Assembly (NCBI GenBank): GCA_035480635.1
Contig: DATIHN010000013.1
Location: 1 to 60,494 of the forward strand
Length of the DNA stretch: 60,494 nt
Direction of reading: 5' to 3'
DNA from: Candidatus Saccharimonadales bacterium
GTDB lineage: Bacteria; Patescibacteriota; Saccharimonadia; UBA4664; DATIHN01
Part shown: one piece after another, positions 43,495-59,924 of the stretch
Numbering within the stretch: position 1 is the stretch's first letter
Layout of the letters: each line of letters starts with the position of its first letter
The notes under the pieces: model-generated
The model's database searches: none
What the model was told of the DNA's origin: nothing
Seen by the model: only the letters and a program-made list of their open reading frames with translations
Program-made: the position numbers and the translations under genes

Positions 43495-43569
43495 GCCGGA
43501 GTAGCTCAGTGGTAGAGCAGCACTTTCGTAAAGTGAAGGTCGTGGGTTCAATCCCCACCTCCGGCTCCA
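43495..43569 (+). tRNA. tRNA-Thr(CGT)
   Basis: GCCGGAG...TT-CGT-AA...CTCCGGC-T-CCA. Confidence 0.95.
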
Positions 43570-57495: not shown

Positions 57496-57572
57496 GGGCT
57501 CTTAGCTCAGTTGGCTAGAGCGCTTCCTTGACGTGGAAGAGGTCACAGGTTCGAGTCCTGTAGGGCCCACCA
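57496..57572 (+). tRNA. tRNA-Val(GAC)
   Basis: GGGCTCT...CTTCC-TTGACGT-GGAAG...AGGGCCCACCA. Confidence 0.96.
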
Positions 57573-57707: not shown

Positions 57708-57784
<77 letters not shown>

Positions 57785-57888
57785 ACTCGTTTTGCGCTTC
57801 AATTTGCGCTTTTTTTGTAAAAAAGCTCCAATTTACGCCCAAAGCCTCGCTTTCCGCAGCTCAAACGCTGCGCTGGTTTAAGCTGCGG
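57785..57888 (+). repeat. Structured tRNA-trailer element, copy 2
   Basis: Homologous to 57573-57674, with compensatory changes. Confidence 0.85.
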
Positions 57889-57909
57889 GTTTCGATAACA
57901 GGGTCCGGG

Positions 57910-57918
57910 TGCTATATT
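57910..57918 (+). promoter_or_regulatory. Extended -10 promoter of the thrS leader
   Basis: TGcTATATT about 15 nt before Stem I. Confidence 0.6.
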
Positions 57919-57929
57919 AGTAACAGTTG

Positions 57930-58082
57930 AATAGGACGTTGAGTCGGCCTAACCAACCGAGGAGTCCCGCTAGCTGATGGCGGACATCAGCCCAAGAGAG
58001 TCCGCCGAAGGCGGAAAGTTTGGTGGAACCATCCGGCAGCTGCCGGATCCAAACGCGCTGATTATCGGTGCGTTTGTTGTTT
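57930..58082 (+). promoter_or_regulatory. T-box riboswitch (Thr, ACC specifier) with ultrashort Stem I
   Basis: K-turn Stem I 57934-57967, pseudoknot 57968-57991, Stem III 58001-58015, antiterminator GTTTGG-TGGAACC-ATCCGG...CCGGAT-CCAAAC 58018-58054, competing terminator 58050-58082. Confidence 0.88.
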
Positions 58083-58094
58083 AAGGAGGAGTTT

Positions 58095-59924
58095 GTGGCC
58101 CAATCCAAAGACGAAAACTTGCATGCCATGCGCCATTCGCTGGCTCACATTATGGCCAGTGCCATCCAACAACTATGGCCCGAGGCCAAGTTTGGGGTGG
58201 GTCCGGTGATTGAAAATGGCTTTTATTATGACATCGACATTGCTCGCCCCATAAATCCCGACGACTTAGAGGCCATATCGGACCAAATGCATAAAATCAT
58301 CGCTCAAGACCTGCCATTTGAACGTATTGAGTTGCCAATTGCTGAAGCGATCGTTCAGTTCAAAAAAAGTCGTCAGACTTATAAGGTTAGTTTGCTAGAA
58401 GACTTAAAAAAACACGGCACCACTTTGGCCAAAGAAATTGATCGTGAACAGTTAGGAGTAGCAGCAAGTGATGCAAAAATTACAACAGTATCAATTTACA
58501 AACATGGTGACTTTGAGGATCTCTGCCGCGGTCCACACCTGAAATCAACCGGTAAGGTCGGTAAATTTAAGCTTACAAAAGTGGCCGGCGTCTATTGGCG
58601 AGGTGATGAAAAGAATCCGCAACTGCAGCGGATCTATGGGGTAGCCTTTGACAACCAAAACGAGCTAGATAAATACTTCGATATGCTGGCGGAGGCCGAA
58701 CGGCGAGATCATCGCAAGCTGGGTAAAGAGCTGGACCTATTTACCTTTTCGGATCTAGTTGGGGCTGGCCTGCCACTCTATACTCCCAGAGGTACCATTA
58801 TTATCGATCAGTTAAAACAAGCTCTAGACGATGTCAGCCGGGAGCACTCGATGCAAAAGGTGTCGATACCACATCTGGCCAAGCTCGATCTCTATAAAAT
58901 CTCTGGTCATGCCGATAAGTTCGAAGAGGAACTCTTCCGCGTCAAGAGCCATTACAATCAAGAATTTGTGCTCAAACCAGTTAACTGCCCCCATCACACT
59001 CAAATTTACGCGGCGCAACCCAGAAGCTACCGCGATTTGCCATTGCGTTACGTCGAGCAAACTATGCAGTACCGCGACGAAAAACCTGGTCAAATCGGTG
59101 GGCTTTCTCGGACTCGGGGTTTCACCGTCGACGACGGACATGTTTTTTGCATGGTTGATCAGATCAAAGATGAAGCAGCTATCATCATCCAAATCATCAA
59201 GAGTTTTTACCAGCAATTAGGTCTGTGGGGTGATCATTGGGTCTCGCTATCAGTCCGAGATGCTCTAGATCATAGCCGCTACATTGGCGAGCCGAGTGAT
59301 TGGGATCAGGCCGAAGCCACCCTGGCGGAAGTCTCAAAAACCTTCAAACTAGATGCCAAGCGGATGGAGGGTGAGGCCGCCATCTACGGACCCAAGCTGG
59401 ACTTTATGTTCAAAGACGCGCTTGGTCGCGAAACACAACTTGCTACCATCCAGCTAGACTTTGCCATGCCCAAGCGCTTCGAGCTAACCTACACCGATAG
59501 CGATGGGAGCGCCAAAACACCGGTTATGATCCATCGAGCCATTTTGGGCTCGTTCGAACGCTTCGTTATGCTCTTAATTGAGCATTACGCCGGTGCCTTT
59601 CCAATATGGCTGGCGCCTGAACAGGTTCGGCTAATCGCTTTGAATGATACTAAGGAAGTGACTGAATACGTTGAATTACTGCGGCAAGAATTGAGCCAGC
59701 TTGATGTCCGAGTCGGTACTGATCTTTCGCAAGAGTCAGTCGGCAAAAAGGTTCGTAACGCTGAACTCATGAAAGTGCCCTATAGCGTGGTGATTGGTCC
59801 GGATGAACTCAAGCGCCAACGGCTAAAGCCTAGGGCCCGCAACGGGCTGGAGGAATTTGGCAGTGGCGTCGAAGTCGATGTCTTCATTGGCCATCTCAAA
59901 GCTGCTATCGAGAATCGGAGCTAA
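58095..59924 (+). CDS. thrS: Threonine--tRNA ligase
   Basis: MRHSLAHIMA, DLCRGPH, AGVYWRGD, LKPVNCPHH, YRDE..G...GL.R.R.FT.DDGH, AAIYGPKLD, ATIQLDF, MIHRA..GS.ERF; GTG 58095 after AAGGAGG. Confidence 0.98.
   Translation: MAQSKDENLHAMRHSLAHIMASAIQQLWPEAKFGVGPVIENGFYYDIDIARPINPDDLEAISDQMHKIIAQDLPFERIELPIAEAIVQFKKSRQTYKVSLLEDLKKHGTTLAKEIDREQLGVAASDAKITTVSIYKHGDFEDLCRGPHLKSTGKVGKFKLTKVAGVYWRGDEKNPQLQRIYGVAFDNQNELDKYFDMLAEAERRDHRKLGKELDLFTFSDLVGAGLPLYTPRGTIIIDQLKQALDDVSREHSMQKVSIPHLAKLDLYKISGHADKFEEELFRVKSHYNQEFVLKPVNCPHHTQIYAAQPRSYRDLPLRYVEQTMQYRDEKPGQIGGLSRTRGFTVDDGHVFCMVDQIKDEAAIIIQIIKSFYQQLGLWGDHWVSLSVRDALDHSRYIGEPSDWDQAEATLAEVSKTFKLDAKRMEGEAAIYGPKLDFMFKDALGRETQLATIQLDFAMPKRFELTYTDSDGSAKTPVMIHRAILGSFERFVMLLIEHYAGAFPIWLAPEQVRLIALNDTKEVTEYVELLRQELSQLDVRVGTDLSQESVGKKVRNAELMKVPYSVVIGPDELKRQRLKPRARNGLEEFGSGVEVDVFIGHLKAAIENRS

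Follow-up and report, generated by a model that had tools for sequence, protein, structure and literature searches.

A compact, conserved T-box leader with a threonine codon in the terminal loop of a short Stem I precedes thrS in Saccharibacteria and other CPR bacteria

T-box elements have been described in two kinds, those with a long Stem I, which act on transcription, and the ultrashort elements of ileS, which act on translation and depend on Stem II (PMC7583486, PMC11297988; 2020-2024), and a review of March 2026 still recognises two classes. [quoted passage not shown]

As a case study, we considered a window of 60,494 nt (by which we mean the whole stretch of DNA analysed) from a member of the Saccharimonadales (Saccharibacteria, within the candidate phyla radiation, CPR), in which such an element precedes thrS. 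A sequence-only reading of this DNA had proposed a Thr-specific, transcription-type T-box with an ultrashort Stem I and without Stem II, and had regarded it as probably a new architecture in a phylum not known for T-boxes. Its account of the ultrashort-Stem-I class as ileS-linked, translational and equipped with Stem II agrees with the published descriptions (PMC7583486, PMC11297988). As to the phylum, our literature search returned no paper linking T-boxes with CPR, Saccharibacteria or Patescibacteria, and none on T-box or riboswitch regulation in CPR bacteria.

Anatomy of the leader and its surroundings

The gene downstream of the element encodes a protein of 609 amino acids that matches the threonine--tRNA ligase model TIGR00418 (E 2.7e-181, above the curated cut-off), and its closest ThrRS relatives, with 60-75% identity, are every one labelled Saccharimonadales (Saccharibacteria, CPR). 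The gene thrS starts with the GTG at 58095, which is preceded by the Shine-Dalgarno (SD) sequence; the ORF start listed for the gene, 58068, falls within the terminator hairpin. A read-archive search found the window sequence only in four soil-metagenome DNA runs. The features of the locus are as follows.

43495 to 43569, + strand: tRNA-Thr(CGU) gene with encoded U73-CCA, from ARAGORN and the sequence
57910 to 57918, + strand: candidate extended -10 element TGcTATATT, read from the sequence
57934 to 57967, + strand: Stem I, 34 nt, with C-stem GGAC/GUCC (57934-37/57964-67), apical stem UCGG/CCGA and a 9-nt terminal loop
57952 to 57955, + strand: specifier ACC (57952-54) and, on its 3' side, a conserved purine, A, both in the terminal loop of Stem I
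57968 to 57991, + strand: H-type pseudoknot of Stem IIA/B type, CGC-UA-GCUGAUG-GCGGA-CAUCAGC
57992 to 58000, + strand: purine-rich linker CCAAGAGAG, conserved across the family (consensus AAG-A/U-G)
58001 to 58015, + strand: Stem III, UCCGCC-GAA-GGCGGA, read from the sequence
58018 to 58054, + strand: antiterminator GUUUGG-UGGAACC-AUCCGGC-AGCU-GCCGGAU-CCAAAC, with A1 GUUUGG/CCAAAC and A2 AUCCGGC-AGCU-GCCGGAU
58024 to 58030, + strand: T-box bulge UGGAACC, 7 nt, between A1 and A2
58050 to 58082, + strand: intrinsic terminator, made up of a 12-pair hairpin (58050-58076) and the tail UUGUUU; a terminator scan detects the hairpin
58083 to 58089, + strand: SD sequence AAGGAGG, read from the sequence
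58083 to 59924, + strand: thrS with its SD

Direct reading of the sequence located all five elements named in the sequence-only reading, among them the threonine codon followed by A in the 9-nt loop, Stem III and the antiterminator with its UGGAACC bulge. Stem I runs GGAC-GUU-GAG-UCGG-CCUAACCAA-CCGA-GGA-GUCC and is closed, after 4+4 base pairs, by the loop CCUAACCAA (57948-56). The kink-turn (K-turn) proposed for it is present as a 3-nt GUU bulge with tandem G.A/A.G pairs (57941-42 with 57962-63), and these match the positions of the 'UGA...GAG' consensus of Rfam. The pseudoknot that follows consists of helix IIA, CGC (57968-70) paired with GCG (57980-82), and helix IIB, GCUGAUG (57973-79) paired with CAUCAGC (57985-91). 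With Stem I extending to 57967 and IIA beginning at 57968, there are 0 nt between them and no Stem II, as had been proposed, and in the Rfam alignment of a relative (L041) all 27 Stem II positions are likewise deleted. The sensing core from Stem I to the end of the antiterminator measures 121 nt (57934-58054), and the region 57925-58100 has a fold z-score of -3.8, with 0 of 200 shuffled sequences folding as well.

The surroundings of the leader were also inspected. A consensus promoter scan found no full -35/-10 site upstream of the leader; the TGcTATATT at 57910 is a possible extended -10 element, proposed with low confidence, which would place the transcript start a few nt 5' of Stem I. Two tRNA-Val genes, with anticodons GAC and CAC, lie just upstream (57496-57572 and 57708-57784), and an AT-rich palindrome, GCGCTTTTTTTGTAAAAAAAGC, lies past the second tRNA and ahead of the T-box promoter region, at about 57806-57827. 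tRNA-Val(GAC) is found within about 1.5 kb of thrS, on either strand, in many Saccharibacteria loci.

The standard T-box model, RF00230, does not recognise this leader, either at the gathering score (93 bits in the Rfam copy used) or at E<=10 on 57780-58200. Sub-threshold matches were obtained on two relatives, L041 (54 bits, E 3e-9) and L078 (48 bits, E 1e-7). For L041, the model aligns the K-turn base of Stem I, Stem IIA with an F-box-like CUAA, the linker, Stem III and the T-box, replacing 74 Stem I positions by 7 nt; the equivalent CGC/GCG and CUAA of L041 fall on the Stem IIA and F-box of Rfam, and its linker AAGUG on the 'aaAGuG' of the consensus. By its position, the linker at 57992-58000 may correspond to the conserved RAG/purine string described 5' of Stem III (PMC11297988, PMC7583486). 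Canonical-looking Firmicute-type thrS T-boxes from AT-rich metagenome-assembled genomes (MAGs) reach only 48-59 bits (L076:1268-1452, L080:960-1158 and L069:985-1182), so that scans at the gathering level miss these leaders too, and the annotation gap left by the 93-bit score takes in the CPR leaders together with Firmicute-like thrS leaders from MAGs.

Conservation and distribution across CPR bacteria

Of 80 related loci, about 40 have TGGAACC in the 200 nt that precede thrS, and there A1 and A2 clearly covary. Because MAFFT misaligned Stem I in a set of 16 leaders, covariance-model alignments were used in its place; these started from a single sequence and were refined by realigning twice. 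The first model (R1), built from the single sequence 57930-58056, matched 38 of 81 sources, and every match was on the thrS strand and upstream of thrS; the rebuilt model (R2) matched 47 of the 81 thrS loci, again each upstream of thrS and on its strand. A third model (R3), made from 25 other species only, with the window excluded, gave in the 60-kb window a sole match, 57930-58056, at 125.5 bits (E 5.7e-29). No further T-box was found in the window with R1 or R3, and no other aminoacyl-tRNA synthetase was found among the eight large ORFs scanned there.

Pairing was counted in two collections, in both cases on alignments fitted to the model structure, which favours that structure. In the 47 thrS leaders (set 1), 91.1% of cells are paired, versus 36-46% in slid controls, and compensatory changes occur in 34 of 34 nested pairs; all six helices covary in this alignment. 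The second collection (set 2), gathered independently, came from a gene-blind scan, one genome per species, with the pattern ACCAA-N5-GAG-N3-5-CG-N45-75-GGTGGAACC. Half of the 80 loci that it returned were confirmed by R3, and in these 40 loci 91.7% of cells are paired, versus 28-46% in slid controls, with compensatory changes in 31 of 34 pairs. The remaining 40 loci, most of them labelled as belonging to a wide range of phyla outside the CPR, look coincidental; having no match to R3, they are usable as a negative control. Although the scan took no account of genes, thrS lies directly downstream on the same strand in 38 of the 40 confirmed loci, the two exceptions being a locus too near a contig end to tell and a weak match to the canonical T-box of another synthetase in Levilactobacillus.

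Taken helix by helix, the helices of Stem I are paired in 94-100% of cells, with compensatory changes in 7-8 of 8 pairs in both sets. The full GA/GA signature of the K-turn is found in 20 of 43 leaders, that of the window included; 37 of 43 leaders have its first G, and 36 of 44 its closing A. Helix IIB covaries in 7 of 7 pairs. Both helices of the proposed pseudoknot are present, and that part of the claim stands; the short helix IIA is mostly conserved in sequence, its first pair being CG in 28 of 34 cells and its second GC in 30 and GU in 1 of 36, and only the third covaries (CG 14, UA 4, UG 4, AU 2, other 9), so that the support for IIA is mainly conservation with one covarying pair. Stem III covaries in 6 of 6 pairs (87-89% of cells paired), and A1 (94-96% paired) and A2 (87-88% paired) show many compensatory changes. 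The bulge UGGAACC is identical in 45 of the 47 leaders, and an 'AA' stands 5' of A1 in 43 of the 47. These analyses confirm that the thrS leader element is a real, conserved T-box and not a chance resemblance.

The codon of the terminal loop matches the gene that follows. It is ACC in most of the 47 leaders, ACU in two (L016:1301-1436 and L029:1267-1404) and ACG in one (L073:1318-1439), so that drift is confined to the Thr box; together with the 38 gene-blind loci that precede thrS, this supports the proposed specificity for threonine. In the commonest loop layouts the codon stands two nt before the 3' strand of the stem ('ACC + 2 nt + stem').

The element was found in loci labelled Saccharibacteria, Parcubacteria/Paceibacterota, Moranbacteria, Wolfebacteria and Patescibacteria. 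No T-box-like leader was seen upstream of thrS in six close Saccharimonadales relatives (L002-L004, L007, L011 and L023), which indicates that the element is dispensable and easily gained or lost. One of these, L002, keeps the tRNA-Val/tRNA-Val/thrS synteny with a short, plain leader.

Several variants of the layout were seen. In the closest relative, whose ThrRS is 75% identical (L001:1343-1452), and in L015:1301-1422, Stem III is absent and only a purine-rich linker of about 13 nt separates the pseudoknot from A1; the bulge of L015 reads UGGAACA. The middle domain between Stem I and the linker is longer in L006, L008 and L073, and several members from Parcubacteria/Moranbacteria (e.g. L033, L046 and L074) have one or two extra hairpins there.

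A compact Thr T-box with a CPR-like thrS was also seen on contigs binned outside the CPR, namely L133:1073-1196, labelled 'Limnocylindria' (Chloroflexota), L132:289-422, a 1.8-kb contig labelled 'Mycobacteriales', and L107 and L127, both labelled 'Bdellovibrionales'. These labels probably result from mis-binning, because the ThrRS of the four contigs is CPR-like and 47-61% identical to that of the window; horizontal transfer would be the alternative.

Regulatory level, predicted ligand and alternative explanations

The expression platform of the window's own leader is of the classical overlap type. The terminator hairpin reuses CAAAC, that is, 5 of the 6 nt of the 3' strand of A1, and is therefore mutually exclusive with the antiterminator. 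By computed folding, the hairpin alone has an energy of -15.8 kcal/mol, and the terminator form of the leader (-28.7 kcal/mol) exceeds the antiterminator form (-17.5 kcal/mol) in stability by about 11 kcal/mol. The U-tract, UUGUUU, is interrupted; a run of at least four T follows A1 within 1-47 nt in most members of the family. Both the SD and the start codon are unpaired in either fold, and the leader contains no anti-SD sequence. The terminator-scan match and the position of the SD outside both structures thus uphold two proposals of the sequence-only reading, a mutually exclusive hairpin with TTGTTT that leaves the SD free and a platform of transcription type.

A second kind of platform was observed in many Saccharimonadia thrS T-boxes, for example L009:1411-1480, also in L014, L016, L017, L019, L022, L024, L027 and L044, and probably in L018 and L020. 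Here, the partner of the strand before the U-tract (GGGCGG/GGUGG) is not the 3' strand of A1 but CCGCC/CCACC, in the 5' strand and the loop of Stem III, so that the off-state helix would enclose an intact antiterminator and compete with Stem III.

Concerning the ligand, the UGGA of the bulge is complementary to the U73-CCA encoded by the tRNA-Thr gene at 43495, which the sequence-only reading had named as its partner. The match of bulge and discriminator holds; the choice of isoacceptor does not, since the anticodon CGU mismatches the third base of ACC and cannot read this codon. The predicted ligand is therefore tRNA-Thr(GGU), the gene for which is not in the 60-kb window. No tRNA-Thr gene was found in 60 related loci, where only tRNA-Val and one tRNA-Ser were seen. 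The ACG of L073 would match tRNA-Thr(CGU).

We consider it most likely that positions 57934-58082 form a transcription-attenuating T-box, predicted from the sequence, through which thrS expression would follow the degree to which tRNA-Thr is charged; that it binds the tRNA, tells charged from uncharged and terminates transcription is what we infer for it. The nascent leader would fold the short K-turn Stem I, presenting ACC-A in its terminal loop, with the IIA/B pseudoknot directly after it, and the anticodon of tRNA-Thr(GGU) would pair with ACC. If this tRNA is uncharged, its 3' UCCA would pair with the UGGA of the 7-nt bulge and stabilise the antiterminator (A1/A2, stacked on Stem III), so that the polymerase continues into thrS. 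With a charged tRNA, or none, the hairpin 58050-58076, as the more stable structure, would claim the CAAAC of A1 and, with UUGUUU, end transcription before the SD. As to how affinity could be reached with neither an elbow platform nor a Stem II S-turn, we would guess at a K-turn that brings the codon loop into contact with the pseudoknot and with the purines of the linker; a 3' stacking of the codon, of the kind seen in anticodon loops, may also occur, given that no loop layout is more frequent than 'ACC + 2 nt + stem'.

Among the other explanations, the one that survives best is a genuine T-box acting on translation, or on both levels, with the hairpin near the SD hindering 30S binding. All described ultrashort-Stem-I T-boxes are translational (PMC7583486, PMC11297988), and 6 nt separate the end of the hairpin (58076) from the first base of the SD (58083). 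We nevertheless think this unlikely: the SD and start codon stay unpaired in both folds with no anti-SD to sequester them, a hairpin with a U-rich tail fits an intrinsic terminator, and the T run behind A1 recurs in most members.

It is still less probable that the leader is the decaying relic of a canonical T-box, with no tRNA sensing and a constitutive, partial terminator. Modules deemed necessary for tRNA binding are indeed absent (PMC7583486, PMC11297988), and close relatives have lost the leader altogether. Against this, the codon is always a Thr codon, 45 of 47 leaders keep UGGAACC, and in about 80 loci, drawn from one-genome-per-species collections and from several CPR classes, each helix is preserved by compensatory changes. 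Such invariance of codon identity and bulge, with compensated helices, points to purifying selection on the sensing parts, which makes a relic unlikely.

[quoted passage not shown] Leader-peptide attenuation was rejected: the small ORFs have no SD, their Thr codons number 0-5 and do not form runs, and neither frame nor sequence is conserved from one relative to another.

Comparison with described T-boxes

With the element read as a tRNA-Thr-responsive attenuator, the stripped-down leader joins features that published T-box accounts do not describe together. The claim of a new architecture holds as far as checked: RF00230 misses the leader, and the reviews of 2020, 2024 and March 2026 do not contain the combination. 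We lean, with some reserve, towards the view that the CPR carries a third, undescribed class of T-box, with a core of about 120 nt, acting by co-transcriptional termination and reading tRNA-Thr only through a K-turn-mounted codon loop, a IIA/B pseudoknot and an NCCA-binding bulge, with neither elbow platform nor Stem II S-turn. If this is true, the members that lack Stem III would be natural minimal T-boxes. A conserved terminator-type T-box without elbow platform and Stem II would break the two-way division of the reviews and show how small a natural tRNA sensor can be, which would help structural studies and the design of small switches responding to tRNA; it would also add to the ultra-small CPR bacteria a conserved regulatory RNA and evidence that a synthetase is controlled by charging level.

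With class I (RF00230; Bacillus subtilis tyrS, thrS and glyQS), the leader shares the K-turn at the base of Stem I, a specifier made of a codon and a 3' purine, the Stem IIA/B pseudoknot with an F-box-like GCG(U)UA, the purine linker and Stem III, the UGGNACC bulge in an A1/A2 antiterminator, and a competing, more stable intrinsic terminator in which the SD is uninvolved. It differs in the length of Stem I, about 90 nt in class I and 34 nt here, and in the absence of the internal specifier loop with its S-turn, of the AG bulge and of the distal loop, which leaves no platform for the tRNA elbow. Stem II with its S-turn, present in class I, is missing too, the core is 121 nt long as against 185-199 nt in the Firmicute-like thrS leaders L076, L080 and L069, and there is no match to RF00230.

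The ultrashort ileS T-boxes of Actinobacteria (TBDB class II; M. tuberculosis, N. farcinica) resemble the leader in having a very short Stem I whose terminal loop displays the specifier, in having no elbow contact, and in keeping the IIA/B pseudoknot, the linker, Stem III and the discriminator. In these elements, however, the S-turn of Stem II grips the codon-anticodon duplex and is required for binding, whereas the leader of the window has no Stem II, and they sequester the SD, whereas here a terminator is combined with a free SD. The two also differ in that class II is an Ile/ileS element of Actinobacteria and the present leader a Thr/thrS element of the CPR.

Finally, glyQS provides a transcriptional T-box that works without Stem II, as the present leader would, a state attributed in glyQS to strong GGC-GCC pairing (PMC7583486), where the codon of the window is ACC. 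Yet glyQS keeps a long Stem I with an elbow platform and has no pseudoknot, and the leader upstream of thrS reverses both.
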